Assembly: GCF_964355755.1 (NCBI RefSeq)
Contig: NC_092674.1
Coordinates: forward strand, 4,216,001-4,280,000
Length of the DNA stretch: 64,000 nucleotides
Origin: Antedon mediterranea
Taxonomy: Eukaryota; Animalia; Echinodermata
Reading direction: 5' to 3'
The notes beneath the pieces were generated by a model. It made no database searches. It saw nothing but the letters and a program-made list of their open reading frames with translations, and was not told the DNA's origin. Shown in pieces: positions 3,376 through 55,720 of the stretch. The translations under genes were made by a program, and so were the position numbers. Position 1 is the stretch's first letter. Each line of letters opens with the position of its first letter.

Positions 3376-5747
3376 GGTTCCATCAGTACACTGTACCCTG
3401 AAGTAACCTGTGAGAGAAACCCACCACCTACTCAAAGTAGGCTTACCCTGAAGTAACCTATCTTCAATGAGAGCAAACCAATGCTAAAAACCGGTCTTTT
3501 AGTATTCTGCTGAATATATTCTTAGAAGGAGCCAGTTTGCGCTTGTATTTTTCAGATTGAGTGACACACGCCTACATTGAATTAATGTATTTGATAGCAT
3601 AATTAAAATATTTGTACGATAATATATATGTATAGCTACCATCAGGACGGTATGTAAAATATATATACACTCCATGTTCAAAGGCAATACAAAACAACTG
3701 TAGAATATCTTTGATTTAGAAATTACTTATCATTGTGTTTATTTTGTAATGTACAGCGCTTATTAATAAAATATGAAAGAAACTTACGATGTACAGTTTT
3801 TATTTATATTTAATGACTTGAAACAAACTTTCGAAATATTCCGAGAACGTTTACGGTTTTCGATATTTCGTGGTATATTATACCACAGAGGAAATTATAT
3901 AAATTATGTATATACAGTATTACACGGTTCCACGTGAGGATTACTTGTCCTTAAAGCTAATTTTTGCAAGGTAATTATTTTTGTGATATCGGATGTAAAA
4001 TTATTCATTTTAATTCATTTGAGTGAGTACTGTATTAATTAAAGAATTGTTACATTAAACGGTTATAGTTCAATGTACTGTATTATTATGGTAAATGTAT
4101 TTATTTGCGATTGTTGTATTCTTAATATGGATTGTCGTTTTATTATATTATGCCTTATAAATATTAATATCATTATATCCTTCTGTATATCTTGTATGCT
4201 ATACATACTTAAGTGCATCGAATGATTACAGTATTGTAATTTATTTCCAATCCCAAAAAAACGGAAAGAATGTGCCACTTACTAATAATTTTATTTATTT
4301 TATTTATTTATTTATTTAACAACATATTTATACAGGATTATGCACAATCAAGTAGAAATATACCTGTTTTGCATAAGTTTTATATTATTATACGTATACA
4401 ATAGATACGTTTGTTACATTATATAGCGAATGTATGCTAATTTATCAACATGCAAAACCATCGGAAGAAATGGGTGACGTCAGCGATTAACTTTTTTTTT
4501 TTATCATATTATAGTTTATTATGTTAGCGCGTGTAAACTAAATCACCAGAAGTAAATCGAATGAAATTCGACACTGTGGTTAAATTTAATTAATTATAAT
4601 AGTGCTATATTGTATGAATATTAATAATATCCTTATACCATTTTTTGATTGAATTGAAACGGGATTTAATAGATCAGCATATTCATCAGTGACGGGGTTT
4701 ATAGAGATCAACATCGTCATTAGTTTCGCTTCTCGTCTACTTTCTACTATTTTTTTTTAAATTTTCCTGTTGTTTCATTGGCAGGATGAGTTGTTTTTTG
4801 TCTGTTATGTTTTCTATTTCCTTTTTACCTTTAGGCTTACCGTACCTATCTATGCAAATGTTGGTCATCACTCTCGGCAGTCTTACTTGATTTTTAATTC
4901 ATTTAGTGCAATTTGACATGAGCCTCTTTGTGTGGTTTTAACATGGAAATCTCTCCTCCATTCTTGACGAAATCATGTTTTCACAGTACGACAAAATAGT
5001 GTACAACAATTGTGTCCATGAATAAAAAAATAATTACTGAATTCTGAAAAGCTTTATTTGTCCATTATCATAATAAAATAACAATAGAAATTCTTCAAAA
5101 CAAATGGTATTCTAGAAAACACGCTCCAAATCAGTTATCAAGATATTTGCGTTTCATAAAACCAAACGTTTTCTACTAGTCTAAAATAGTCGTTTGTGTA
5201 TACATTTACCGCGAATATATTCCTGAAATTCATTTTTATATTCATATATGCGTAGTTGAATAGGCCCAAATGCCATTTACACTAACTAATTCGGTAACGG
5301 TAAGCGAAAAGCAATAGAATCTATGTTATTTCCTATGAGCATTACGCGGAGCAGACGGGAGGTTGAGCGGAAATGCACAGGATAGATACAGATTTTTCCA
5401 GGGGAAAGCTACGTAATTTCCCATACCGTTACCGCTCGTTCATGTATAAATTTAAAGCGAATATATTCCTGAAATTCAGTTGTATATTCATATATGCGTA
5501 GTTGGCAGGTTAATACTCGTATTGTGATTAGCAATGATACTTCAACGGAATTCCGAAATAGACATACACGAGCCATGAGCGAATAATTTATGAAAATCAG
5601 TATTAGGCCACTCCTCTTCACTTCTGGTGATACAATCCATTAGTACATATTGCGTACGAAAGTTCTAGGCAGATTTGTCGAACATGAGGATGGTGTGTTG
5701 TTAGGATTAGTTGTGTCTCGTAGGCCGATGAAACTGACGAAAATACT

Positions 5748-6689
5748 ATGATGACTTGCCTATTCAAGGGCATCTTTAGGACCTATCTTCATTACATTCG
5801 TGTTTTGGAAACTAACAACAATGCAACGATACCCGAATGGCTCGAAACCACAGACCAATTCGATCGTATCCTTGCGTCTATCATATTCCTGATTTCTTTA
5901 GAAGTTGTAGTATCAAATATACTGGTACTGCGCACGCTCATCAGAAGTTCTCGCGTGCGCACGAAGAGGAACATCGTACTGTGCAGTTTAATACTATCGT
6001 ACATTTCAAACGCAATCGTTTGGTGGGTCCTTCTATTCGTAAATTCATCAATCATAACAATTCGACTAAATTATTGTCTGGTTGCGATATCGTTTCTGCA
6101 TATACCGACGATCGCTATAGATCGCTACATTGCTATTGTAAAATCACCGGCTAAATATCCTTTCCTGATGACGAGAAATAAGTACATTATTCTCTGTGCA
6201 TTTTTATGGATCAGCGTCATGCTTATGTTTCTTTTATTTTCTATTATTGAACCTTTTCGATTTTACGGAGAACATCTAGCGGCTCAAGTGCTGTATCTGT
6301 ATACGTTTATATGTGTTGCGTTTGTGTATAAACGTATATACAGTTTGCTAGCGACAAGAGAACGAAAACTGAACGATAAGAGAGTGGTGCATTCGATTAG
6401 TCGGACCCGAAGTCGCCTGGGATTGTTCGCAGCAATATTTACGGTTATGTTTATATGTCACACGCCAATGACGATTTTATGCATCATTGCAACAATTGGC
6501 GGCATTGAAATCTGTTATAATCCGTGGTTTTACTGTTTTTTTGTAGTCGGTTGGTTGTTTCTGGCCTTTGCACCGGCCATCAACCCGTTTGTCTACGTTT
6601 GGCGTTTGCCCGGATTCCAAGCAGCGTTTACAAACAGTATTAAATTAAAACGATACAAACCAGCAATTGATAAAGACACGGTATCGTAA
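5748..6689 (+). CDS. Intronless class A (rhodopsin-like) G-protein-coupled receptor, 313 aa
   Basis: Single ORF with about seven hydrophobic segments, SN in TM1, IAIDRYIAI (DRY) after TM3, W in TM4 (AFLWIS), FICHTP (CWxP-like) in TM6, INPFVY (NPxxY) in TM7. Confidence 0.9.
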   Translation: MMTCLFKGIFRTYLHYIRVLETNNNATIPEWLETTDQFDRILASIIFLISLEVVVSNILVLRTLIRSSRVRTKRNIVLCSLILSYISNAIVWWVLLFVNSSIITIRLNYCLVAISFLHIPTIAIDRYIAIVKSPAKYPFLMTRNKYIILCAFLWISVMLMFLLFSIIEPFRFYGEHLAAQVLYLYTFICVAFVYKRIYSLLATRERKLNDKRVVHSISRTRSRLGLFAAIFTVMFICHTPMTILCIIATIGGIEICYNPWFYCFFVVGWLFLAFAPAINPFVYVWRLPGFQAAFTNSIKLKRYKPAIDKDTVS

Positions 6690-23500: not shown

Positions 23501-26500
23501 AAACACCGTATATCCAGCAGTCATCACTACTAAAAAGGCCTAGGCCTAGCTAGCCTAGCTCCAGGCCATGGCATTGTCAAACACCATTTACTCGTCCAAC
23601 CGTTTCTTCAAAACGATGTTAACACCCGTGTTAACAAGACGATGTGGACGAATTTCCATCAATTTCAGTTAATTACAACGAAATAATAATAAAATGAATG
23701 TTTCAATAATACGTGTATAATAAATAGCGAAATAAACATCGCTCGCGAGGAGGGTCGAGAGAGAGGCCAAGGTGGTCGACTCTGTGATTCTCACGCATGC
23801 GCAAAATAACTCCGTGTACCCAGCAAGATAGGCATTTGGCTATGAATTTCGTAAAAGATGGCCTTGAAAAACGAAATTAAAATCCGTTTTAAAAAAAACT
23901 TGGTTGATAATATGAATTAATTTTATTCGATTAGGCTAACATACTTATCCAAGAATAAAAACATCAAAGCAATAAGTAATTACTACCATGCTTTTGCATC
24001 AATCAATGATTTCCTGCTAAATTCCTATCTCTGTAATACAAAAATAACTTTTAGTGACGTCACAAAAAGTTTTTCACAGGTTTCTCAGGGGCGTTTTGAG
24101 GGCGTTGTCGTCCTCCAAAACATTAAGTATGACTATGGCAAGCTTAAACCTGATTGATCTACACGTTGAGCCAATAAAATGATATTGTTAGGAACCCTTT
24201 CATATCCATTTTAATACAGTATTTAGTAAAATATCAACATTTTAACACACATGGCGTGTCATACATATTCAAGAATAATTACAATTCTGGCGGCCGAAAT
24301 TAACAATACATATTTTGTCCTTTTTGGCGTTTCATGAATTTGGCAATTTCATAACCGGCGGCCGAAATGACTGGCGGCCGAAATGATCAGACACCAACAA
24401 AACATCACTTATTACAGAGGGCGGTCTTCAATTTCAATTTATTTTGATATTAAAAAATGTATAAAATGTACAATTAAATTAATTAAATAGCACAATAACA
24501 TTAAATGTTATGTTAGCATGTACTTTAGATATTATTTTATATTAATAAATGTTTTAAAAATGTTTTTAGACACAGTTTGAGAAAGGTTTGCTGGTTCTAA
24601 CAAGTCATCATTTGTTATGGAGGGATGCAGTTCGAAAGGTATAGTTTTTTTAATGAACTTTTGATGCATTAATTAAATAACAGGCCTATTATAAAATAGT
24701 AAGAAAAAAACCCATATTTTTTTTACACATCACACAATATTTTTTATGATGATATAAAACAATCTAAATCAAAGTTAAATCATGACTTCCCTCCCTCATT
24801 GTTTGCAGTATATGTATTTACTAATTCTATTTTTGTTTTTTTCCCCCAAACAGTCAAGTGCTATAGCTCTCCCATTAGAAAGTATTTTGTATGCAGAGGA
24901 GGTATCAGAAGGCAGAGGAAAAAGGTACAGTAATATACCACACAAATCTATCTATATATAAATTTACGTAAGGGCAAAATTCGGTAAATCGCGCTTTACT
25001 TCTAGAATTTTTACTCGATTGTATATAAAGTTGGTTCGTACTTTCGGTACTGATTTTAACCACCTGATGTAACCCTGTTTACTAATTAAATTAAGTTAGA
25101 TAATTAGTTATTGACGATTAAAACGAATTTAGGTTCAACGATTTGCCCCAAATAGGGGGTTTTTCGATCGTGGTATACACTGTCTAATGGATGTCCATCT
25201 TGAAAAATACCCGCCACAAAAATGCGAGGAGGCTTCGCATTTTCCTATCTCCTCCTACGATAATTGTTTTTAATAGCTGAAAACCGGTTGAACAGCTAGA
25301 GTACAGCATCATAATGTTGAAGACAGGCCGATTTTCTTTAAAAAATACTATTTTGATAGATTTAATATACGTTTATAGAAATGTATTGATTTGCAATGAA
25401 TGGAACATTCCAAATTATTGCATACCTCCATGGTTTAACACAAGTAGGTAAATTTATAGACCCTTGGAGAATAAACAGAAATAGTATTGTAATGCTATAC
25501 AATACTGCAAATAGGTAACTTTCACGATAAACGTGAAAGTCTCCCGATATTCTATATCTTCTACTGGATTAGCCTTGCACTCTTGAAATATCCAGTTTTA
25601 CTTTAGTATTAAGCTCTGTCTACACTATCAAACTTTATGTGACAAAATGATGATGTCATATCACTACCATATTTGGTATGCTAATATCTAAATAGAGCTT
25701 TCTATGTTTTCATATACAGTATTTTTCAAAATGTTTTATCGCCCTCTATAATTTGGACAGTTTTCATAAACTACCTGTTCTTTATTGCATGTCATAAACA
25801 TCATTTTATTTTACATGCCTGTCATCCCATATTTATTAATACATATAGAGAAAATACTAATCAATATTTATATTTTCGTTTTCTTTAATACTAATCAATG
25901 CTCTTCTTTCATTTTCTTTAGTCAAAAGATAGTTCTTCATTTATTACCAGCCAAACCTGGTAAGCCTGCAGGTCCTACAATGAGCAGTGTACATTCCTAC
26001 ATCAGGCTGAGTTTTAAAGAAGCTGGGGAAACTGAGGTAGTAGGCCAATAATAATAAACTTTAAACGCAGTTAAGCATCACTTATTTTCTTTATTTCTTA
26101 CTCAAGTTTTTCATTTAGTTTTTCAGGTGTTTAAGCGAAGAATTGCCACGAAAACGGTGGGAGAGTCTTGCCCCTTCAGCCGTTAAAGAAAAAGTTAGTT
26201 TATATTGCATCAAATACAGAAATTAAATGCATATACAGTCGACTCTCCCAATTGGCTGTACTATTATAGTAAAAATTCCAGTATATATCAGACTTTAAGT
26301 AGAATAATTTTGAGGAGAATATTGCAATTGTTGAGTTTACTAAAAACAAACACCACTGTTAGTTTGTTTATATTGATGTCCCATTTTATTATCCACAGCC
26401 AAAAGAAATTCGAGCAGGAATTGTTGGAATTGAACGACGAATAGAGGAGAAGCGTAAAGAAACAGACACAACAATTTCAAAGGCTTTTGAAGATTTAAAC

Positions 26501-29500
26501 AAACTAATGGATAAGGTAAGTCACACTGTTTGTCTGTCTGACCGCAGTTCATGCATACATAGCTTAAGAAATGAGTTATCAATGAAATATTTTGGTAATG
26601 TTATGAAGTTTGTTTCTTCGTGCTACAGTAGTTAAGAATTTAAGCTCAGCAACTACCATTTTTATTTTGTGCCTCATTAGCTTTAAAAAATGAATAAAGA
26701 ATCATGGGTCTAATGTCAACTAGAGGGCTCTTCAAGGGTGCATACCTTCACCTATATTATAATTCCCCTATATAACATTCCGCCTGATATTTTTTATAAT
26801 TTTTGTGTCCTTGAACGTGAGTGAGTTGATGTATTATGGTTATATATCCAGCCTTTCGCTGTTGAGATTCTAAATTTAATTCAACCTCATAACCTCTCGC
26901 CATTATTTTATTATTATTATTATTTTATCTTCAAAAACCACACAATGTCACACTTAATCTTGATTTCAGGTGGATTGACCCATTTGTTAAATTAAAAATG
27001 TAATAATTTTATGGAACTTTGGTTTTTCTTTGTTGTTTGTTAACATGAATTAGACTAATTAGACTAATGAATAGATGCCCCAGGGTAACCCCAGAGATGG
27101 TACACTAAAATACAATGGATTACAAATTATTAATTATTCAACAGCTTAAACATTCAATGTGAGTGTAGCTTTCTAATTAAAAACTTAACCTGATAACCTT
27201 AATGAACAAACAAAATGGGATAAAAATAATATTTATTTAATTGTGTTTTCACAGGCAAAGGAAATGGTGAACTTGTCCAAGACAATAACAAACAAAATAA
27301 AAGAACGTCAAGGTAGCATTACAGAGAATGAGGTACAAATTTAACAAATATTTATGTAATATTTAGAAATAGCAGCTTTAACCATATTTTGTGGGGGGTT
27401 TTTTTTCGATCAAAATTGTGATGTAAATTCTGTATTTTTTACAGACAGTGCAATTTAAGTCATATCTCTTAAGCCTGGGCATTGACAATCCTGTCACAAG
27501 AGAGACTCATGGATCAGGATCCAACTATCACAAAGAACTTGCAAAACAGCTTGCAGAATTTCTCCAGAACCAGATCGAAGAGAACGGAGGCATGATGGCA
27601 TTGACCGATGCATATTGCAGAATCAACAGGGCAAGAGGTATGGAGGTAAGAGTGACAATCTATTATATGCACATAACCCGGTATTCATTAAAAACTATAC
27701 ATGGCTGCAGTGAGTCTGTTGTTTTTTTAAAAAATGTTGTCATTTATATAGCACTTTTAACAACAGAATGAAGTGATGTTTATGAATAAGTTCAAGTTTA
27801 TGAAAAGTTCATGTTTATGGATAAGTTCATGTTTGTGAATAAGTTCATGTTTGTGAATTAGTTCATGTTTGTGAATTCATCATGTTTGTGAATAAGTTCA
27901 TGTTTGTGAATAAGTTCAGGTTTGTGATTATGTTTATGGGTAAGTTCATGTTTATGGATAAGTTCATGTTTGCGAATAAGTTCATGTTTTTGAATTAGTT
28001 CAGGTTTGTGAATAAGCTCATGTTTGTGAATAAGTTTATGTTTGTGAATAAGTTTATGTTTGTAAATAAGTTTATGTTTGTGAATAAGTTCATGTTTGTG
28101 AGTAAGTTCATTTTTTATGAATAAATCATTGTTATAAAAAAAGAAATAAACTGAAATTAAAATATATAACAAATTGAATTACAAATATTTTAATTTGATT
28201 ATAGTTGCTGTCTCCCGATGACCTGGTAGATGCATGTAAACAGTTTGAGAATCTTAAGTGTCCATTAAGGTAAGATAAGACACATCACATGGTCAGTAAT
28301 TATACTAGTCTAGTTTTGTTCTCCCAAAACTGGACACTGCCAAGCTGACCAAGAATAGCTGGTTATTCCAAGTTAAGATAAGATATCTTTATTTGTCAAC
28401 GAGTGGAAATTATGATACTTGTCTCATACAAAGTTAAAACAGTAATGGAAACACAAATATAAAAACCATTAAATCCTAAAGTTATCAAAACCAATATCAA
28501 GTCATATCGAATACAATATCAGAAATGACTTTGCGGTTGTAATGTATGATACTGTGTTGTGGGAGAGTTAAATTGATAATAGTATGATTGGATTGAGGCA
28601 GGCTTATGATAGAGGAGAGACATTGCACACACAAAACAAACAGATGTTTGATCATTTTATTTTGACAGATTGCGTTCGTTTACAAGTGGTGTAATGGTTA
28701 TTGAACTGATATCAAAAGGAGAAGAACAAGTTATGCACGAATTAGAGGAATTGGTAAGACGTCAGTTTACAAAGGCTTATCCAATAAAACCTCTATTAAG
28801 GGGACACCTTTGGGACCCAAAAATATGTCTCCTTAATAGGAGTGTCAACTGAATAAGGGTATTTTTAAACTACATGTCTATGATAACTACCATAGTTGTG
28901 GTTAAACACAATTATTACAACAAATAATAATAATTGTCAATCTTCAAGAAGAATTTCTGTTGTTTTTTTATGATGATGATGGACAAATAAAGCATTTCAG
29001 TATTCAGTAAATAAGCTGTGTTTACATGGTTTTTGCTCTATCATAGTTAAATTGTGATCTATTGAGTTGTGGTTTAGCTTAGTCTGTGTTCAAACACAAA
29101 AAATACACCAGTTAAACATCAAACATCCCTATGATGAAAAGTGTTTATCTAGTGTTACATTCTGAAACCTATCCGAGTTAAAGTTACATCGCATGTATCT
29201 CTGAAACTCTGAAATAATAATCAATAATTATAAAAAGAAAAGATGATCAAATGCGCATTGTATCCAGAAATTTTCATATTAGAAGAAGTATATCAGGTAA
29301 ACAAGGTATAAAGCTATGTGATGTGCCCATATATGGACATGATGATGTCATAGCACTACCATATTTGGGCATATCACTACCATATATAAGCACATCACAC
29401 TTTTTTTTGTAAAACTAGTTTTGATAGTGTAGATAGAGCTTTAGACTTGTATCAGGTTAACAACGTATGAGATTTAACTGATCACACAACTCAAATGAAC

Positions 29501-35340: not shown

Positions 35341-37555
35341 ATGGCAAGTTTCATTAGTTTGAGGAAGGTTGTTTCGTGTCAACTAAGCAGAAGATGTATG
35401 TCTACGTCGACCCTTTTGAGACAGAGTAGCAATGGGCACTCTTATGGCGGTCTCTGCGATGGAAAGTCACAAAATAGATACCAACACAAACAGAAGCTTG
35501 ATCACGTGAGATACCAATCGTAAGTTGTAGCAGTTGTAGCGACATTCACACCCACTTAACACGTGGAGTAGAACATTTGAATGTAACAATACCTAAATAC
35601 ACCCTTAGTAAAATTAATTCGTCCTTTAAAGTTGCAGGCGCAAAAATATGGAACAGTTTACCAATTAATATTAAATCGGCACCAACAATTACGTCCTATA
35701 AGGCTAGATACAAATCTCATTTCTTTTCATAAACACTGTATTATATTTAATTAAGTTTTTCTTTTTGATTAAGACAGGACCACAATGTAAAACAGACACA
35801 CTGTTATCTGATTGTTTTATCCTGTATAAATATATTATTTATTATTATTATTATTTATAATTTATATTTAAAAAGTATACCGTTTTAGGCTCTGTCTACA
35901 CTCTCAAACTTTATGTAAAAAAAAATGTGATTTGGACACGATGATGTCATATTACTACAATATTTGGGCACATCACATTTTTTTCTCATAATTGTTGATA
36001 GTGTATACAGAGCTTTAGGCATATGTACCATTCGTTAGGTTTTGAAAATGGAAAGATAATTGTTTTATGAGCGCTTGGTTTAAAAACCTTACAGTGGGCA
36101 GTATTTTCCAATATTATAATAGTATATTTAATGTTCAAGTTTCACCGTCTGACGTAAATAATTAGAACGATCTTTTTTAAAATGTGGCATTTTCTATTTT
36201 ATTTGTATTTTGTTGACTTTTAGGACTTAGGCCTATGTACTTGTATATATGCTCATTTTTAATTTGTGCTGCAAAAAGCCGAACATATAGGCCTAATTAG
36301 TTATCTTTCGTTCATTCTAGAAATAAGCCGAAATCGGCTGACGATACGATAAGCGTCTCAATGTCAAACCGCCAGAGGTACATTAACAATAACGTACTGG
36401 AAACCATAGACCTATCACCTTTGGACGATATACACAAAGATGGTGTTTTCACACGCAACATTGAGAACTACATTGGTACCGTGAAGATTCCAATCGGGAT
36501 GGTCAACGTCGACGTAAATGGTATGTACGCCAAGGGATCTTTCTCTGTCCCTATGGCTACAACTGAAGCTGCATTAGTAGCTTCCTATTCCAGAGGCTGC
36601 AAATTGGTTTCTGTCTGCGGCGGAATCAACACCGTTGTCGTGGAGAAAACCGTTCAGCGAGCTCCAGAATTCCTGTTCGCTAACATTTCTGACGCAAACA
36701 TATTTTACCGGTGGTTTAACAGACCAGAAATGTTTGATAGAATTAAAAAGGCTGCGGAGACTACGACCAATTATGGAAAGCTAAAAAAGACCGCAGCTAC
36801 CTTACATGGTAATAAAGTACTTACTAAGTTTATGTACGAAACTGGTAACGCATCCGGACAAAATATTAGCACATTTGCTACCAATGTTGCTATTACGGAG
36901 TTTCTACAAGATTCTCCTATTCAACCGCAGAAATGGTGGCTGGATGCCGGCGGTTCGCAAGATAAGAAAGCGTCGAGTGGTCTTTTCAACAACTCCAGAG
37001 GTGTCTACGTCACTGGTGAAGTCATCTGCCCTAAAGATGCTGTTGAACAGATTTTGAAAACAACAGGTAGGCCTACTTATTTTAACCATCTTAATTTATA
37101 ATATTCCACGTTTTTTTTAAACTAATTTTTAAAAGCAACTACTATACTATATTATTTTATTTATTACAGTTGATAATTTGAATGAAATCAGCGAATCAGT
37201 GACGATTAGTCAGTATATGCAAGGAGTGACCGGTAAGTTGTCTCGTGGCAATTAATAACTGTACCTTTGTTTGCATTGCGCCCCGTCACGTTTTTCTACG
37301 AGGAGCAAACAACGAGTAACTAAATATATAATTTTACATGAAAAAATATATACAGAGTAGTACTGTTATCTTGTAGGGGGTGAAAAAGGATTTTACCAGT
37401 ACTGTGTTATCGGATAAGGCCCGACGTGGTTTTATAATTAATTTATAAAATTATAAATAAAGTATTGCAAGCTATACAATACTGTACTTTGTACTTCATT
37501 CTTAAGCTCTGTCTACACTATCAAACTTTATGTGACAAAAAATGTGATGTGCCCA

Positions 37556-37587
<32 letters not shown>

Positions 37588-38084
37588 AATCCAAAGGCAA
37601 ATTACTGAAAAAAATGACAATGCTGTGGGTATCAGTGGCTGGATCTCAATGGAGATACAAAAATAAAAAGCGAAAAGCTAAATCAAAACGATAAAGTAAA
37701 CAGCCAGAAAAGTTAGCAGAGCTTTCGGGCAACACTAGCCCTTCATCAGTGCAAGTGAAGGAATTTGGATAACGTCAGAGTATAAAGCTGGCAAGTGCTG
37801 CCTGGGTGGACAGGAATAAAAGAAAGAAATATATATATATATATATATATTTGTTTAGTCTCATTCCAAAATTGTTTATATCTCTACCAAGCTACCTTCT
37901 TTGTTTTCCACTCTTATTCAGACTCCACCCTGGCTCCCTTTGTTATATTTCTTTTATTCCTGTCCACCCAGGCAGCACTTGCCAGCTTTATACTATGACG
38001 TATACTTTTTATTTTTGTATCTCCATTGAGATCCAGCCACTGATACCCACAGCATTGTCATTTTTTTCAGTAATTTGCCTTTGG

Positions 38085-38155
<71 letters not shown>

Positions 38156-39766
38156 TACCATATTTAGGTATACCATCACCATATTTGGAAACATCAAACT
38201 TTTTTGTCAAACTAGTGTAGTATAAAGTGTAGACAGAGCTTAGTCTATGTTATCAACACTGTAATGTACCGAGACCGCCGCAATCTGTCGCAACATTCTG
38301 TTTGTTTAGAATATATCATTTATACATACACATTTTCGTCTAGCCTGTTCAAATAAAGATTATGATAAAAATAGAAAACAAATATGCTGCTTTTGTCTAT
38401 TGTACTATTTTAAGATATAGATTAAACGTGACATTGAAATTGAGCTTTTATTACCGTTATAAATAAACAACTTTAAAAACGGCAGATTGATTATGAGCGC
38501 GTTCAAACTAAAGCTCTGTCTACACTATCAAACTTTATGTGACAAAAATATGATGTGCCCATATAGACAAGATAGTGTCATATCACTACCATATTTGAGC
38601 ATATCATTACCATATTTGGTCTCATCACATTTTTTAAACTAGTTTGATAGTGTATGCCCCAAGTCTGTAGTTATTGTCTATTTTATGTCAATCAACCAGT
38701 CGGCGTTTCGATTTTTGCCTGAGTAATACGAACTCACTGTGTATTATACGTATGGAACGCCATATGTGCCAACATACTTTTTACTAATTTTGGTCTAGAA
38801 CCTAGACTAGTTCAAACTATACAATACTGTATAATAATTTATATCTACTGCGTTCTTACGCGCATGTGCAGTGATCACTGCTTTAGTCGCGCCAATATTG
38901 AAGTATTTGAAATATAATAGTATAGGCTATAATAGTAGTACTATAGTAGTAAAAATGTCAATATTAATATACCACCCTAACCCTTTTCAGTTATCCTCAC
39001 ATTCATTGTAATACCTGGTAAACTAGAGAGTGGATTATTATTATTTTACGATGAGTTGACTTATTGTTTGAGTGATAATTACAATGATTCGGTTATTATA
39101 TATTTTTTTCTTCATAATATAGGATTAACTTGTCACGCCGCTAATGCATTGACCGCCATTTTTATCGCGTGCGGACAAGATGTTGCTTGCGTTGTCGAAT
39201 CTCATGTTGGCGTCACAGAGATGCGCAAGACACCAGAGGGTGATCTTAGGGTACGCCTAACCATACCGTCAATGATGATTGGAACCGTTGGAGGCGGTAC
39301 AGATCTACCTTCTCAAAACGTAAGTTTATTGAAATTAGATAATGTAATTACCAAAATTTGAAAGGTTTTGTATATCATATCATACAAGTTTACTTCCTAT
39401 TAGGACGTAAGCCCGCCGTATATAATTTGACCAATCACGATGAGATGGATCATCCGAACTTTTGATTTTGATTGGTCAACAAACCTACGTGGCGCCTGTA
39501 TGTCGTTGCGTTGCGTCCAAGTAGAAAAGTATAAACGACAATTGCACGCGACAGAATATTTTGTTTACCGTCTAGCCTTTCTTGTATTTTAGACGTGTCT
39601 TAGTATGATACAACTGCCCGAAGAGAACAGTCGAGATGCATTAGCTGAGGTCATAATGGGCGTGCTTTTGGGCGGAGAACTCTCTCTCAGCGCCGCAATG
39701 ACGGCGCATCATTTTTCAGCTGCTCATAAAAAATTCGCCAGAAGTGGAGTCACGAAACGGGTTTAA
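35341..39766 (+). CDS. HMG-CoA reductase-like protein copy 1 (soluble class I catalytic domain, predicted mitochondrial presequence), 5 coding exons, 452 aa
   Basis: Exons 35341-35519, 36321-37066, 37170-37232, 39123-39319, 39593-39766 splice in frame. Motifs ENYIG, PMATTEAALVASYSRG (catalytic Glu), GNASGQN, QDKK (catalytic Lys), HAAN, ACGQD (catalytic Asp), GTVGGGT, GELS, AAHKKFAR (catalytic His). No transmembrane/sterol-sensing domain. Confidence 0.93.
35545..35856 (+). mobile_element. LINE (CR1/L2-like) 3' fragment in HMGR1 intron 1
   Basis: Translates to SFKVAGAKIWNSLPINIKSAPTITSYKARYKSHFFS*, a typical ORF2 C-terminus (WNSLP), followed by a 3' UTR and an (ATT)n tail. Confidence 0.7.
37587..38088. 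mobile_element. Two inverted Penelope-like terminal fragments embedded in (TA)n inside a family B MITE (HMGR1 intron 3)
   Basis: 37587-37670 is the reverse complement of ~38005-38088, and 37772-37830 of ~37944-38000. (TA)n tracts at 37562-37586, 37829-37850 and 38088-38152. The surrounding MITE B spans 37505-38240. Confidence 0.7.
37713..37754 (-). ncRNA. Minimal type I hammerhead ribozyme motif
   Basis: Minus strand reads UUGCA-CUGAUGA-A-GGGC-UAGUGUU-GCCC-GAAA-GC-UC-UGCUAA: intact core, 4-bp stem II, palindromic minimal stem III, near-complementary stem I. Confidence 0.75.
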
Positions 39767-45390: not shown

Positions 45391-45590
45391 ATAAATAAAT
45401 AATATATTTACATGAAACACGTTACCAGTGTACCTGTAGATAATGCTACCTTATCGGTCATTGACTGCGCATGTTCCGTGACTTCACAATGTATAAAACC
45501 CTTTCGAGACGTGATACGGATATCATTCAGTGTTACCAATTATTACAAAATACGCGTTGTAAAAACTGGTCTAAGGATAACTGCTTGACA

Positions 45591-48500
45591 ATGTCGAAGT
45601 TAAGGATTTTGAGCAGAACAGCAACTAATGTTAATTCGTTTGGTCGATATTTTTCTACGAGCGTTTTGAAACAGAGCAGCGCAGGCGATGATGCTGACTT
45701 TAACGCACGAAAATCATTTCATAAAGTGTCGAACAAAGCCACCGCTGATATCCAAGTTAGAAACCAATCGTAAGTACTAAAATAATATGTAAGCATTTCT
45801 TTGAAAGAGAGAGAGAGAGAGAAATTAGATTTTACGATAGAATACAAGGGCGGGTCTGTGATTTCTTGAAAAAGGAGAACGGATAATGGGCGGCTCTCCC
45901 ATATCCGCGCCTGCTGCAGCTGTATGTAGTTTTTATCCTAACCGCACGTTCAGTATATAGCTTAAAGCTCTGTCTACACTATCAAACGTTATTTAACAAA
46001 AATGTGCCCATATAATGACATGATGATGTTCATAATTAGTTATATTTCACCATATCAGATTTGTTACTGTGAGGAATTTGTTTGTGGAAAAGAATATTCC
46101 ATCATTTTATGAATATTTGAGGATTTCGACTTACCGATTTCTTACAAGAATAATGAAAAGCGAAAACAGAATGTTAATTTGTATATACAAATATTTATTG
46201 ATGGATTCAAACATGTACTACAAATGGAGAGAGGCATATACCAATAGATAAAAGTTTTGGTCCTCTCTCCTTCATCTTTTTTGTTTTCTTTGTAATGCAT
46301 TATACCATATGGACAATTGTCTAAAATAAAAGTTGAATTGAATTGAATTGAATATCCCACCTACACTATTGTTATAGTACTTTGTGTTTTCCACCGATGT
46401 AAAGCTGTAATTCCCAATAATTGATTAATTGATATCTACTTTTCCATGTAATTTGTCGTTTTAGTTATAGGCCTATGAAGTTACTTTCTTATAGCCATAA
46501 TCACTTATATCGATATTAAACAAGTATTTGTGATACTCAGTATGCTAATAGAGTATTTGAATATGTGTGGTGAAATGCCGTAAATATATCATAGCTATAT
46601 ACTTTAAAATAACTTCTTACTTTTTCTAGAAACCAGGCTGAGTCAGCCACTGCTACTAGTGTGTCACTTAACAATAGAAACATGTACATCAACCAAAACG
46701 CGTTGCGTAATGTTGACCTATCACCGTTGGACGACATGTACAATGATGACACGTACACACGTAGCGTGGAAAAGTACATCGGAACTGTTAAAGTCCCAGT
46801 TGGGATGGTTAACGTCGACGTAAATGGCATATACGCAAAGGGATCATTCTCTGTGCCTATGGCTACAACTGAAGCTGCATTAGTGGCATCCTACTCAAGG
46901 GGCTGTAAGCTTATCAGGGCATGTGGAGGAGTCAACACAGCAGTTATCGGACAGACAATTCAGAGAGTTCCAGAGTTCATATTTCGCAACCTACCCGACG
47001 CGTACACTTTTTTACAGTGGTTTGATCGCCCCGAAGTCTTTAACGCTTTAAAATTGGCTGCCGAGAGTACAACAAACCACGGTAAACTTATTAAGATAGT
47101 ACCTAACTTACATGGTAATAAGGTTCATGTGAAGTTTTTGTATGAAACTGGAAACGCGTCTGGCCAGAATATCAGTACATTCGCTACCAATGCAGCTATT
47201 ATGAATGTTCTTCCCGAATGCCCTATTCAGCCAGAAAAGTGGCTGCTGGAAGCAGGTGGTTCGCAAGACAAGAAGGCTTCAATTGGGTTTTACAACAATT
47301 CTAGAGGATTGTATGTCACTGGTGAGATGGTGTGCCCAAAAGAACTTGTTGAAAGTATTCTAAAAACATCAGGTAAGTTTAGCCAAACTGTAAACAACCA
47401 CCTATCTATTTTCGCAGGTAACCATCTACGTTCAAATCTAAGATTAAATTCAGTATCCTAAGTTGAATCATTAGAGAAAAGGACTAAATAAATAAAATCC
47501 CTGTTGACTGAAATTACTTTCTCTAATCTAAAATGCGTTAATAAAGATAAGGGTAATAATGTTTAATGTTCTGAATTTATTTTGGCAGTTGATAACATGA
47601 ATGATGCCAACGAGTCGACACTTATGAGCTTATACATGCAAGGAGTAACAGGTACGTCACGTGAATGTTACGTAATAATGATCTTAATAATGTTGGAATA
47701 AAAGTAGACAGACATTTCTAATTCCCTTCATACTTACTACTAAGTTTATTTCAATACGTGCTTTGTACACAACTTTGATAAAACTGCGCAAAGCTTGTTC
47801 GTCAATTTTTTTTATTTTGGTAATGTTTAAAATGGTGATATATTTGTACAATTTGAGTGATTTATTTTTGTATTGTAATATATTTCAGGATTGACATACC
47901 ATGCATCCAATGCCCTGGCCGCCATCTTCATCGCATGCGGACAGGACCCTGCCTGCGTCGCCGAAAGTCATGTTGGCGTGCAAGAGGCGCGTAAAACACC
48001 AGAAGGCGATCTAAGACTTCGAATAACGATGCCATCCTTAATGGTGGGAACAGTTGGAGGGGGAACATTCCTGCCTTCACAAAGGGTAGGTTTTATGATT
48101 TATTTTGTCCAGAACTCAACTGTCAATGAACACTTGTTACGGACCTTATTTAGTTTAAACAACATTTAAAATAAAGTCCTGTAGTAGTAGCCAACGACAG
48201 ACAGTGATGTGCGCCTTGGTTGGACCTCAGTGTTGTAGTAAGCATATAGCGTTTGGGGTGTCTCGGCAGCCTAATTATGGTCCTGACACTTTAAAAAAGG
48301 TTTGTTTCACGACACTCGTTCTGTTTTACCACTGACGAAAATTTAGTTCAATTATTATTAATTATTATATTTTATAAAACAAAGAAATGTTATCCCGGAG
48401 TTACCCTTTAACATAATGTATTTGTGTATTACAGACTTGTCTTGATATTGTGCAACTTCCAGAAGAGAAAAGTCGACTTGCTTTTGCTGAAGTTATATTG

Positions 48501-48608
48501 GGCGTTATATTAGGAGGAGAACTGTCAATTGCGGGCGCTATGACTGCACATCATTTCTCATCAGCCCATCACAGTTTGGCTCGAAAAGGGAACGGAGTAA
48601 GAAAGTAA
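45591..48608 (+). CDS. HMG-CoA reductase-like protein copy 2 (soluble, predicted mitochondrial presequence), 5 coding exons, 451 aa
   Basis: Exons 45591-45769, 46630-47372, 47589-47651, 47889-48085, 48435-48608, with the same phases and near-identical lengths as copy 1. Motifs EKYIG, PMATTEAALVASYSRG, GNASGQN, QDKK, ACGQDPACVAES, GTVGGGT, GELS, SAHHSLAR. Confidence 0.93.
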
Positions 48609-50307: not shown

Positions 50308-52760
50308 CTATTTTTTTTCTTCGCAAGGCTCGTATTCAAATTCCAGTCCCGTTCCGGTTAATGATTCTCTCAATACAGAATCTATCAGCTTGTTCTGCGC
50401 AACTGTAAAATGATTCATCCAATCGCCAACGCCACCTGGATGACGAAACAAATGATAAGTGTAACCCATATCAGCCTACTCTCATGTTTTGTAACAAATG
50501 TGTTTGTCGTCAGAGGATCAAAAGAGAAAAATCGAACCCACAACCTCCAGATTTACTAGCCTCTTGTATTCAAATGAATTGGGCCCACACTAGTCTAGGT
50601 TCCAGACAGAGTTTTGACTTAATATTAGTAAAAAAGATAAATATTTTGGCAAATATGGCGTTTCATACGTATACTACTTGAGTTCAGACAAACATCGAAA
50701 AGCCTCGAAATAACTACAGACTGGGGAAAGTCTAGGCCCACACGTAGGCCTACTTATGGGCGGAAGAAGTAGTAAAGGATCTCGTTGTGCGCCACAGTAT
50801 CATACTTAATTCAGACAATGACGTCATGTCCTTTACTTACCTTTTCTCATAAACGTAGAAACATTGAGGTCAAAGTCCGTGAGACCTGTGAAGTTGGCCA
50901 TCGGGTTCTTGCTCATCTTTTTGAAAGTACACTGATCGACTGTCTTCTGGAGGGCTTCTTCTGACAGGGTCTTTCCAAGATGATCGCATATTTTGATGAC
51001 GTTTCCTCGAAGATCCTGAATTGAATTATAGTTGATTTGTTTAGTCATTTATTCATTATGACGGCAGAATTTAAATGTCCCCGTAGTACTGCATTTATTT
51101 TCAGATATCGTTAAATCATTCTTTTCAATCGATATTATTACGGATATTTTTTTAAGAATTTTTTTTTACGGATAGATTTACGTTATTGTTGGTTTCCGAG
51201 TTGTTTCGTTACTAAATTATGTTCTGTATTAGACCTATAGTGAATGTACAGTTAATCTATATACCTAAACCTACTTACTCGCTTCATGTCTTCATATTTT
51301 AGAAAAAGAACGTTTTCATCATGGCGATTCTGCCACCAACTGGTTACGTGATGAACCCAAGATCCATACGGAGCTGTTTGATAAAAAATAAAAGAAGAAA
51401 AAACTAGGCCTACTTTATAGTATACCATAGCTTACAACTTCACACATTTTAATTTCGCTTAACCGAAACCTTTATTCATTTGGCCTGGGTTACAGATAAG
51501 TTTGCTTCGATATCTGGAAGCTGGAATATCAACAAGAAGTATCTTGACTGCTTTTGCTTTCTTTTAAACTTTGAACCGTTTCCTTTTTGTTCTGCGCTTT
51601 TATTCACTTTGTTATGTTCAGTCAAGTTGTTTGGGTTATGAGATCATAAAATAGTAATGCCACACTACAAAATTACAAAATGCGTATATGTAAATGAGAA
51701 ATGTATATTATATTTTGGGCAAACTCCCCTATACGCATGCGCGTATCCGTGTCTCCGTGTCACAACACGTATACGAATACGATTTAATTTATAGCGTTTT
51801 CCATTTGTGTAAAATCATTTTTGTACTGTACTCGATAGAGGGCTAAAGGTATATAAGGTTAGCCTGTCTAGCCTAGGCCTAGTCAACATTTTTTACTTTT
51901 TGTCGTTTTCTTGAAGCATTTTAATACTAAATCCTGTCTGAATTAAGTTTTGCTGATAAGTGATCTTTGCCACGTGTAACACTTTTGATTTTCAACGAAT
52001 AAATCTTAAACGTGTGAAATCCGCACGTCGATACGCACCGAAATCGCGTATACTGTATTGGTGTCACGCAACACAGATTGTGTGACGTAGTACGCGATTA
52101 TCCATACGTATACACGGAGGTTGCCCAAACTGATATGTAGGAGGCGCACTTACATTTCATGGGAATCATCATCTTCAACAGGTAATCCTCCCAACTACTC
52201 ATTCTGTCGTCATCACTATAAGCTTTGAACATCTTCAAAAAGTGGAACGCTGACACACAGATGTCTTTGTAGTTTCGTGCCACGTATACTGCCTATTATA
52301 TAGTACGTATAGCCTATTATACAGTACACGTATAGTGCCTATTATATAGTACGTATTATATAGTACATATATTGCCTATTATATAGTACGTATTATATAG
52401 TAGGCCTACATATATTGCCTGTTATAGTACAAAACCAATGAGTATTTTTTTAACCATTCTTGTTTTTTTCATCATCATCAACAACATCATCGTCGCCGTT
52501 TCGACGTCGTAGTTAACAACACCACCGTAATTGTCATCGGTGGTTATCAGAAAACATCAATGTGACCACCGTTTTTATTATATACTTATCCTCGTCATTG
52601 CTCCTTCTATGAGGTCATGATCAATCCTCATATGACGTCATAATCTATCCTACTATGACGTAATAATCTATCCTAATGTGACGTGTTCATCAATCTTCTA
52701 TGCTCATTACATCATCTTGATTGTTGTAGTCTACCGCCGCCATCATAATTTGTATCACCG

Positions 52761-52791
<31 letters not shown>

Positions 52792-53431
52792 TATCATCAT
52801 CATCATCCTTTATCATCGTCGTCGTCTTCGTTCTAATAAATTCGTCATTTTCAGTTGCTGCTGTTGTTGGCGTTATCATTACCTTTGCTTTTTTATTATG
52901 GAAATCAGGGGGCATCGTATCAAACGCCATGTGTGTTTTTATTAGTCTTGGTTTATCACGTGGCATGTTTGCAATCTTTTTAATTAGGATGTTGCCTGGT
53001 TTGGCTGTGCTCATTTCAAGATGTGGCACCCGTTCTTCAACGTGAATCGACGTAATCTTCTCAACGTCAGCCTCGTAATAAATCATTGAGACTATTTCCT
53101 GTAACCATGTTGTTCCTGTTAATTATAGATTGATTAAATATTGTATATCAATATTAATTGTATTTGTTTTTTCGATTTCTCCATTGTTATTTTCTCTATT
53201 GTTGAAGGCTATTGTCTTTTTTTAAAAGAAGCATTGTTTACCTGATTTTGGAAAAGATATAACGTAAACGTCATCATTTCGTACTTCAAACGTTTTCATC
53301 GCTTCAAGCGTACTTGCATGAACAAACCACGGGTATGGAACGCCATCGTAGACATGAAGACCAGACCCGGCCTGGAATTCAATATCAGGATGCTCAATTG
53401 ACGATTTGATTGAATCCTTACTTGCTGACAT
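50308..53431 (-). CDS. Cytosolic PAPS-dependent sulfotransferase (SULT1-like), 6 coding exons, 319 aa
   Basis: Minus-strand exons 53431-53242, 53115-52883, 52292-52154, 51373-51279, 51015-50841, 50435-50308 splice in frame. Motifs SFPKSGTTW (5'-PSB), RLIKTH (catalytic His), YVARNYKDICVS (3'-PB), PYGSW, FLKYEDMK, FMRKGGVGDW. Confidence 0.95.
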
Positions 53432-55720
53432 TTTCTAGGAATTATTGTGGTATAATTTTAGATAGACAATGGCAAAACAAAATCACTATACTACACTACA
53501 CACTAGCTACACCAATGCTATTATTAAACGATATACTTGCCAGTAGAGCACAATTCATACCTATGCAATTTGGTGTTTATTACCGCCGCCTAGGAGGTTA
53601 TATGTTTGAGATAACATCAAAACTAAAAGGACAGATCTTAACCAAATTATAAACACAGTGAGACATGTGGTCAATGAAGACTCCATTCAGTTTTTAGGAA
53701 ATCTTAACCAGGATCCCAAATTCTGGACCACTTTTTATTATTTTACTAATTTTAAGCCGTACGTCAAAAGTACAACTACGGATTTATATATATATTATTT
53801 ATTATTTTGATTATGATAATAGGCCTGTAATAATGATGTAGTCCGCTAATAATATCCGTTCTGCTCCAGCAAAACATCTCGAATTGAGATTTGGAGGCCT
53901 AACTTTACGCGGATAGTATTTAGACTTAACCTCCATCTTTTTGTCCATCTATAGTTCTGTCCCTAAAAATGTGTTTATATGAAATAGTAACACTAAATAT
54001 GAAAGCTGTTAAAGCCTAGAAAAAAACATAGCAGTAATTAAAGTAAGTAAATTAAATAAGAGTTTACCGTACCTGTTGCTTACTGTACACCTTCTGTTCA
54101 GAATGGAATACGAATTTTGTTTAGTGATACTATATAGCAATTTATGACGTACCCTTGGCCTTATCATCAAACCAATAAAATAACCGGTCACCCAACCAAC
54201 ATTGGAATTGTATCACATGTTAAGTGTACTTCGCACTTGTTATTTATATAGCAACTATTTTATGTCAAAGATCGTAAAAGAAAAACAAATACACATAAAG
54301 CAAACCGTATTTGTTGTACGTACTCAACAAAATGTAGTACAACTACTTAAACTTTTTAACAATGTTATTGAAAATAGTAAAATAAATGCAATAACAACGG
54401 GATGCTGAGCACCGGAGATCAAAGGGTTTATCTGTGGCTGCAACACGATCAGTTCCACGCCCCTGAACACTGCGCGCCGCGAAGAATATGTAGATTGTAC
54501 AGTATACTGTTGGTATTTGTCACAGCCAGACATAAGATTAAAGGACTGTTACGAGTTGGCAAGACGAGCCCAGTCCTGTTGTTAGATTGCCTTGGTATAA
54601 TGTACCGGTATAGTATATTTAAATAAAGAGAAATGATGGAATTGTGGTCTAAGGATTGGTTTGATGAAAACAAAAGATTATCTTTGTGTATACACATTTT
54701 ACAAAATAATAATGGGATGGAAACGACAGGGAAGTAAGTAAATAATATTTATTGCTTTCCAAGAACAGTACAAATTAATAAAACAGTATAATGTAAATGA
54801 AATAAAAAGAGAAAACATTAAATATAATAATACAAGACTAAACTAGAAAATAAGCATGGAAAGCAGGGGATGGCCCTTTAAGCCCAGAGACTTGTTTCCA
54901 AGGGGGACCCCAAAGAGATAAGATAATTGTTATTTACATGCTACTAATGGGTTGTTTGGAAGGGGTGGGGGAGAAATAAAAAAATAATATTTTCATTAAT
55001 TATTCATAATTATTGATTGTTTATTTGTAATTGTTGTTTTAGGAAACGGTACCTGAACCTGATTACGTCTATACTCTTATTTTATGTGTTCTCTTACTGG
55101 GTACGTTGCAAATGGCGCCAAGATTGTTTTATAATTCTAAAAGGTAGGCCTATATTAGACTTGACCCAAGTATTTTTTAAATGTTTGTTCGGGGTTTTTT
55201 TAAATGATTTTCGTTGTGTTTTTATTTAATTTTTATTATTATTACCCGTCGGCGTTTAGATTTTTCTCTTATAGCTCAAGTATATATGGCAAAATATTTA
55301 TCTTTTTGCTAATATTAATTCAAAATACGTTATGTACGAGTATTATGTGTTCCTTTACTTCGTATGTTGAAGGGCGCCAACATTGGTTGGCCAGTTTCGA
55401 AAGCGTCATGCTATGCACATGCGTATTCGCGTTTCTGTCTGTCATACTGCCTTCTTCGACGAATTCTAGTTCCTTTGATTTTTCGCTTCAGCAAAATTTA
55501 CTAGTACGAATTGTTTCTACTTTTTGCGAAGCGAAACATTGCGCAACCAATCAGAGCTCAGGAAATGAGCACTCATGCGAATCGAAATGCTCAGCAACCA
55601 CGCGAGGAACATGAACGTCGCAGCTATTCGCTCATGTAGTGGAAAGAGAGTAGGCGATTTATTTCTCTTCGAAACGTTGGATTCGCGCGAACAAATTCGC
55701 CTAGTGGAAAATCGGCTTTA

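Follow-up and report, generated by a model that had tools for sequence, protein, structure and literature searches.

We analyzed a 64,000-nucleotide stretch of the genome of the feather star Antedon mediterranea (NCBI RefSeq assembly GCF_964355755.1, contig NC_092674.1, positions 4,216,001 to 4,280,000 of the forward strand; below, this whole stretch is the window, and coordinates count from its first nucleotide). [quoted passage not shown] An original prediction, made from the letters of this sequence, took the two products to be mitochondrial HMGRs that link leucine breakdown to mevalonate, each with a presequence on an exon of its own.

Two tandem five-exon genes

Each gene was modeled as five exons separated by four introns, all of them GT..AG (the models were built from GT..AG sites). 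The model of copy 1 agrees in every letter with a RefSeq protein of A. mediterranea of 452 amino acids (P0002), and that of copy 2 with a RefSeq protein of 451 amino acids from the same species (P0001). In copy 1, exon 1 (35341–35519) holds the start codon and codons for a predicted presequence of about residues 1–20 (35341–35400), and then a polar linker. It is followed by exon 2 (36321–37066), which encodes the bulk of the HMG-CoA_red domain (PF00368), a 63-nucleotide mini-exon (37170–37232), exon 4 (39123–39319), with the catalytic Asp in the motif ACGQD, and exon 5 (39593–39766), with the catalytic His and the stop codon. Copy 2 has the same layout, with exon 1 at 45591–45769 (start codon, predicted presequence of about residues 1–21 at 45591–45653, and polar linker), exon 2 at 46630–47372, the 63-nucleotide mini-exon at 47589–47651, exon 4 at 47889–48085, and exon 5 with the stop codon at 48435–48608. 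Exons 2, 4 and 5 of both copies matched PF00368, over profile positions 2–368 and at 31.7–167.8 bits against a cut-off of 27.

The first exon opens with the ATG at 35341 or 45591 and is 179 nucleotides long in both copies (59 codons plus TC). Its 3' end reads ...ACCAATC at 35519 and 45769 and is followed by GTAAGT, so that both exons end in phase 2 and the split codon TC|A, for Ser, is finished by the first A of exon 2. The coordinates, the phase and the peptides quoted in the original prediction were exact. The prediction had also singled out the equal length of the two exons, and this point fell away: the exon-1 segment measures 60, 60, 61, 62 and 54 amino acids in five paralogues, a spread by which the shared 179 nucleotides is no conserved constraint and not meaningful in itself. 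The common phase follows from tandem duplication. Between the two copies, 15 of 58 residues are identical in exon 1 and 270 of 392 elsewhere in the protein, and the nonsynonymous and synonymous divergences (dN/dS, NG86) are 0.82/1.05 in exon 1 and 0.22/1.84 in the remainder. At the DNA level, likeness between the copies is still recognizable at exons 2 and 4 only.

A spliced RNA contig confirmed the structure of copy 2. In run X1, one contig of 2042 nucleotides is spliced 45769|46630 and across three further copy-2 junctions, with GT..AG at each. It covers 45467–45769, 46630–47372, the mini-exon, 47889–48085, and 48435 onward to beyond 48750 in the 3' untranslated region, and it leaves the unique parts of the copy-2 introns uncovered. 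Copy 2 is transcribed, and its exon 1 is joined to exon 2 exactly as in the model; because of this junction exon 1 is present in the mature RNA, as had been predicted.

The mini-exon codes for the segment that includes the site of the HMG-carboxylate lysine of HMGR, occupied in copy 1 by Val/Ser. An annotated isoform of a relative in a second crinoid, Anneissia (P0333), skips the equivalent mini-exon in frame, and in the window genes, too, the splice phases at donor and acceptor would permit such a skip.

Among named eukaryotic proteins, the family was found in these two crinoids only. Antedon contributes P0001 and P0002 from the window, and P0241 and the truncated P0005 from another record; Anneissia contributes P0004 (with its mini-exon-skipping isoform P0333), P0332, P0003, P0006 and P0007. 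P0001–P0004 and P0332 belong to what we call the window subfamily, and P0006, P0007 and P0241 to a second crinoid subfamily. P0005, a third Antedon member of the window subfamily on a record of 36.2 Mb, has 307 amino acids, no leader and a degenerate cofactor motif, and lacks the regions of the catalytic Lys, Asp and His. It probably represents a pseudogene or an incomplete gene model.

The first exon encodes a predicted mitochondrial presequence

Exon 1 matched no Pfam family in either copy. The first 25 residues of each window protein contain four Lys or Arg, no Asp or Glu, and eight Ser or Thr, for a net charge of +4, and the first acidic residue stands at position 33 in copy 2 and 40 in copy 1. 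Across seven full-length crinoid paralogues the same segment has 0–1 acids and a net charge of +2 to +6. In 186 bacterial homologues of similar length it has a median of 3.5 acids and a net charge of 0, and it is acid-free in 4 of the 186. A cleavage-like site of the form R-x-[FM]|[ST] lies at residue 20–21 in P0001, P0002, P0004 and P0332; it reads R-Y-F|S-T in copy 2 and R-C-M|S-T in copy 1, and the R-x-F/M|S-T form is kept in the Anneissia orthologues. We also applied a strict rule, which asks for R-x-[FYLM]|[STA] with the cut at residue 12–45, no acids upstream and at least three Lys or Arg upstream. Four of the five members of the window subfamily pass it (P0001, P0002, P0004 and P0332; P0003 fails), against 4 of 191 stand-alone controls, all from one near-identical cluster, and 1 of 117 long proteins.

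These features fit the published description of presequences as segments of 20–60 amino acids, rich in Arg and poor in negative charges, that form an amphiphilic helix and carry R-2/R-3 motifs (PMC7723863, in its available text). In the AlphaFold model of P0001, residues 1–90 have a predicted local distance difference test score (pLDDT) below 50, with a low-confidence helix at residues 3–23, and the confident core runs from about residue 110 to 440. Exon 1 evolves fast, as the comparison of the two copies makes plain, yet its composition is retained. Since the sequence drifts freely while the composition and the R-x-F|S-T site stay, the pattern is that of a cleaved targeting peptide. The leaders thus look like presequences, as originally predicted, and mitochondrial import, with comparative data and an RNA junction behind it, is a fairly probable prediction. 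The claim of a whole exon dedicated to the presequence stood in part: about 21 residues are leader-like, and the remaining approximately 39 residues form a polar linker that stands in place of the N-terminus of the bacterial homologues.

Other destinations were considered and rejected. No hydrophobic segment was found in the first 70 residues, where KD19 ranged from −0.46 to 0.42 (two canonical animal HMGRs reach 1.66 and 2.05), and we therefore set aside signal-peptide and transmembrane readings of the leader. A type 1 peroxisomal targeting signal (PTS1) was rejected because the C-terminus lacks an SKL-type signal.

The only non-crinoid stand-alone homologues with acid-free N-termini were the metagenome proteins P0082 and P0085/P0094/P0099. 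P0082 has a proline-rich basic start and sits on a long branch. These proteins could be further eukaryotic members of the family.

A number of observations count against import. All three members of the second crinoid subfamily fail the strict R-3 rule, and P0003 and P0007 have a net charge of only +2. The maximum hydrophobic moment over 11 residues is 0.73 in copy 2 and 0.44 in copy 1, with a bacterial median of 0.59. The Met that would stand at −1 of the copy-1 cut is not a typical Icp55 residue. Copy 1 is represented in X1 by low-depth fragments on exons 1, 2 and 5, without a junction. For copy 2, the contig begins at 45467, 124 nucleotides upstream of the start codon, and in this 5' stretch (45467–45590, untranslated in the model) two ATGs, at 45471 and 45489, lie in frame, and no stop codon intervenes before 45591; use of either would place 40 or 34 further residues, some of them acidic, before the leader. 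Whether the leader is N-terminal therefore depends on which copy-2 start codon is used. The ATG at 45489 overlaps a TATAAAA motif (45492–45498), which would set the transcription start site near 45520, so that 45591 would be the first AUG of copy 2; contigs cannot reveal where most copy-2 RNA molecules start. In copy 1, the ATG at 35341 directly follows a pyrimidine run and an AG, which may be the 3' splice site that joins this exon to an untranslated one further upstream.

The strongest rival explanation holds that the enzyme is not imported but cytosolic, with exon 1 giving either a basic, disordered tail or an amphipathic helix that keeps the enzyme on a membrane or lipid droplet, in the role that N-terminal lipid-binding parts have in certain bacterial FcrA enzymes (the reductase group to which we assign the window genes below). 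The modeled helix at residues 3–23, the high hydrophobic moment in copy 2 and the in-frame upstream ATGs would all suit such an arrangement, and a lipid-handling enzyme could employ such a helix. However, the leader is rich in Ser and Thr and weakly hydrophobic, and the moment is low in copy 1. The free drift of the sequence, with the acid-free state and R-x-F|S-T kept in four proteins from two species, is moreover the pattern of a cleaved signal and not of a binding helix. We consider the cytosolic alternative unlikely.

The reductase domain carries an FcrA-type pocket

The best relative of solved structure was the archaeal class I HMGR 6HR7 (E value 4.7e-60), with human HMGCR next. The catalytic residues Glu559, Lys691, Asp767 and His866 (human numbering) are kept in the seven crinoid proteins whose sequences span these sites. 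In NCBIfam TIGR00533, the equivalog model for NADPH-dependent HMGR, six crinoid proteins scored 259.8–291.3 bits, below the cut-off of 441.8; three bacterial relatives scored 314.9–347.4 bits.

To compare the substrate pocket, 9 crinoid, 199 stand-alone, 80 named bacterial, 65 fused bacterial and 54 canonical proteins were aligned to one profile. In the Ser684 column, 53 of 54 canonical enzymes have Ser, whereas eight of nine crinoid proteins have Glu or Asp (the ninth, the degenerate P0005, has Asn), as do 199/199 stand-alone bacterial proteins and 79/80 named bacterial loci. The HMG-carboxylate column has Lys in 40 of 54 canonical enzymes, with the other 14 carrying it in the next column, but in none of the nine crinoid proteins, 199 stand-alone bacterial proteins or 80 named loci. 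At Leu862, canonical enzymes have Leu (51/54), and Phe is found in all seven crinoid proteins with this region, in 199/199 stand-alone bacterial proteins and in 78/80 named loci. Two further characters are common to crinoids and bacteria: a cofactor motif of the form [SC]GQ (7/7 crinoid proteins, where 53 of 54 canonical enzymes have MGM) and an AHxxxAR C-terminal tail (6/7 crinoid proteins, 0/54 canonical). The lysine that salt-bridges HMG, printed as Lys795, is by its position presumably Lys735.

These three pocket positions are the ones that set FcrA, an HMGR-related fatty acyl-CoA reductase, apart from HMGR. According to the available text of the paper that describes FcrA, Ser684 is changed to Glu, the HMG-binding Lys (there printed as Lys795) to a small residue and Leu862 to a bulky one, while Glu559, Lys691, Asp767 and His866 are kept (Grossi et al., 2025; PMC11948995). 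The same text, in which FcrA was characterized from bacteria and haloarchaea and only in 2025, reports that Pb-FcrA of Ca. Promineifilum breve did not reduce HMG-CoA and was not inhibited by simvastatin, and that the FcrA clade takes in most bacterial 'class I HMGRs' (PMC11948995). By every sequence criterion applied, the window genes would be FcrA-type reductases. One statement in the available text counts against our reading of the substrate, in that eukaryotic members of the FcrA clade may accept smaller molecules (PMC11948995).

The crinoid proteins resemble FcrA from Ca. P. breve and Natronomonas pharaonis in their HMG-CoA_red fold and catalytic Glu, Lys, Asp and His, in the acidic residue at Ser684, in the missing Lys at the HMG-carboxylate position and in the bulky aromatic residue at Leu862, and they fall with 'bacterial class I HMGR' sequences that come without a mevalonate pathway (Grossi et al., 2025; PMC11948995, available text). 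They differ in having Phe rather than Trp at Leu862, and Val, Thr or His rather than Gly at the Lys position. Instead of the N-terminal lipid-binding (Lad) extension of FcrA they have the predicted presequence exon, and their genes are animal genes with introns, whose activity is predicted from sequence. With class I HMGRs (human HMGCR, 1DQ8; archaeal 6HR7) they share the Pfam family and the four catalytic residues. Unlike these enzymes, they have no membrane or sterol-sensing domain in their 451–452 amino acids, carry changed HMG-pocket residues, score below the NCBIfam equivalog level, have the cofactor motif G[ND]A[SC]GQN rather than GDAMGMN, and lie outside the canonical eukaryotic clade.

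The first residue of the cofactor motif (residues 235–236 of P0001/P0002) varies within the crinoid family. The Asn of G-N-A-S-G-Q-N was considered as a lost catalytic Asp and this was rejected, as alignment to 1DQ8 places it at the first residue of the DAMGMN cofactor motif. This residue is Asn in the window subfamily (P0001–P0004 and P0332) and Asp in the second subfamily (P0006, P0007 and P0241); a regular expression run over 325 matched proteins returned Asp in 302 and Asn in 9. The motif is DAMGMN in canonical enzymes and GDA[SA]GQN in bacteria. A yeast enzyme with Asp changed to Ala at this residue retained about half of its activity, according to the available part of the report (PMC8531335).

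We examined the neighborhoods of 34 of the 80 named bacterial loci by Pfam matches to flanking open reading frames (ORFs) of at least 250 amino acids. The homologue was followed by a UbiA-family gene in 15 of 34 loci and by a PPDK_N-type gene in 19 of 34, and no mevalonate-pathway family was found among the matches. The UbiA prenyltransferase and PPDK_N phosphotransferase genes lie on the same strand as the FcrA-type gene in bacteria of many phyla. The trio occupies about 2800–5100 in each of L002, L005, L007, L008, L013, L015, L018, L021, L022, L025, L026, L030, L034, L047 and L048. An MMPL/sterol-sensing-domain transporter lies upstream in L011 and L033, an AMP-binding enzyme was seen in L038 and L047, and the Vibrionaceae loci are without the trio. 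The reductase of the trio comes from the bacterial group with the greatest similarity to the crinoid proteins, at 38–47% identity; in contrast, the window has no UbiA or PPDK_N gene among ORFs of at least 70 amino acids, and the tandem pair of crinoid genes stands on its own.

These data bear on a second rival explanation, the metabolic reading of the original prediction. By this account the proteins are true HMGRs in mitochondria, which would make mevalonate from the HMG-CoA of leucine breakdown or ketogenesis, or work in reverse, in the manner of trypanosomatids. The match to PF00368, the presence of all four catalytic residues and the presequence-like leader are all as such an enzyme would have them, and there is a precedent in the soluble mitochondrial HMGR of trypanosomatids, in a family whose other eukaryotic members are described as anchored in the endoplasmic reticulum (ER) (PMC5993337, available text). 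The crinoid proteins are like the trypanosomatid enzyme in being soluble and anchor-free, with a matrix location that is predicted only; unlike that mevalonate-making enzyme, they have an FcrA-type pocket (PMC5993337, available text). The HMG-carboxylate Lys is absent from all nine crinoid proteins, the Ser684 position is acidic and that of Leu862 holds Phe, and the scores fall under the curated equivalog cut-off. Pb-FcrA, with the same pocket states, did not reduce HMG-CoA in the experiments described in the available text (PMC11948995), and the nearest bacterial relatives examined adjoin UbiA and PPDK_N genes, with no mevalonate family among the matches. Because the three pocket positions carry FcrA states, a role in turning leucine into mevalonate is unlikely, and we regard a true mitochondrial HMGR as improbable. 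The claim that the proteins feed or drain mevalonate found no support, on four counts, namely the equivalog score, the pocket, the inactivity of FcrA on HMG-CoA and, as described below, a relationship other than paralogy to the animal ER enzyme. With an enzyme of the FcrA type, that metabolic reading is probably wrong.

The crinoid family probably derives from bacteria

Scores dropped from 613 to 461 bits between the crinoid proteins and the next matches, which are bacterial, from many phyla, and 38–48% identical; all of the named non-crinoid near matches are bacterial. Canonical eukaryotic enzymes are 31–37% identical to the crinoid proteins. In the trees, the crinoid proteins form one clade (support 99–100), and the canonical plant, fungal and animal enzymes form a separate one (support 91–100). 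In quick IQ-TREE runs, the neighbor of the crinoid clade was the stand-alone group of bacteria (support 96–97); all of the trees were built without any characterized FcrA sequence. In the early trees, the 'bact' and 'bact_fused' labels of metagenome proteins and the 'euk_canon' label of rows such as P0209 and P0227 were assumed, and the later trees and approximately unbiased (AU) tests used 80 or 22 bacterial genome loci with names from their record titles.

The annotation of the crinoid proteins as 'HMGR 1-like' would suit a third rival explanation, in which they are old, fast-evolving duplicates of the animal ER HMGR that lost the membrane domain and resemble bacterial enzymes artefactually. 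A clade of the crinoid proteins with seven animal canonical rows was rejected by the AU test (log-likelihood difference 147.7, p-AU 5.7e-5; LG+G4, 43 rows), and the crinoid genes are thus not duplicates of the animal ER gene. The canonical plant, fungal and animal clade excludes them, and the [SC]GQ motif, the AHxxxAR tail and the three pocket states are common to crinoids and bacteria. One result leaves this explanation some room: a tree uniting the crinoid proteins with all canonical eukaryotic HMGRs was not rejected. We nonetheless judge an origin from the ER enzyme to be very improbable.

The same result counts against a bacterial origin. The crinoid proteins and all canonical eukaryotes in one clade gave a p-AU of 0.616 in a test run without P0184, which is sister to the eukaryotic clade, and FastTree weakly joined the crinoid clade to the eukaryotic stem (support 64). 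We take bacterial gene transfer to be the likelier history, because discrete characters are shared with bacteria and the distribution is narrow. Our literature search found no paper on crinoid HMGR-like or FcrA-like genes, and the Anneissia genome paper does not mention HMG or mevalonate.

Bacterial contamination or an assembly artefact, which the bacterial identity of the closest named non-crinoid relatives might suggest, can be dismissed as having next to no probability, because each gene has four GT..AG introns, a spliced RNA contig was recovered and animal genes and animal-type repeats flank the pair, and the genes have orthologues in a second crinoid genome.

Other features of the window

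Of the animal genes that flank the pair, a single ORF at 5724–6686 on the plus strand encodes a rhodopsin-family receptor (7tm_1, E value 2.6e-11), and exons of an EAP30/Vps36-family (ESCRT-II) gene lie at 26363–27768, also on the plus strand. A cytosolic-type sulfotransferase gene, with PF00685 on two exons, occupies 50836–53434 on the minus strand. Upstream of its domain the ORF contains a run of Asp codons, and the opposite strand has a poly-His/poly-Ser reading at approximately 52.7–52.9 kb. Introns of the tandem pair at 37400–38650 and 45890–46010 contain (TA)n-like microsatellites and dispersed repeats that are common to both genes and very deep in both sequencing runs.

Discussion

The explanation that we favor, with modest confidence, is that the tandem genes encode soluble HMGR-fold reductases of the bacterial FcrA type, each with a predicted cleavable mitochondrial presequence. 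The precursor would be imported via TOM and TIM23 and cut after R-Y-F in copy 2 or R-C-M in copy 1, with MPP cleaving one residue upstream and Icp55 then removing that residue. With NADPH, the mature enzyme would carry out a four-electron reduction in which an acyl-CoA thioester becomes a primary alcohol; its substrate would most likely be a fatty or other non-HMG acyl-CoA rather than HMG-CoA. The crinoid lineage likely acquired the family from bacteria; the family may then have gained introns, had its bacterial N-terminus replaced by the leader exon, and multiplied. The full chain, in which a captured bacterial FcrA-type reductase with introns and a mitochondrial leader, at at least four loci per genome, makes fatty or other alcohols from acyl-CoA inside mitochondria, is a tentative proposal.

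The point that stays of interest is a family of putative acyl-CoA reductases, specific to animals and likely derived from bacteria, whose genes have a leader exon. If the leader does not direct import and the enzyme proves to be an ordinary reductase of the cytosol, the genes would be a lineage-specific family of modest interest. The genes would also serve as a warning that 'HMG-CoA reductase-like' labels in animal genomes can mask different chemistry. The animal fatty acyl-CoA reductases FAR1 and FAR2 are peroxisomal membrane proteins of an unrelated fold. Should the full proposal hold, crinoids would have a way of making precursors of wax esters or ether lipids that is new for animals, through an enzyme unrelated to the FAR reductases, and the family would be a clear case of a bacterial-type lipid enzyme taken into an animal organelle.

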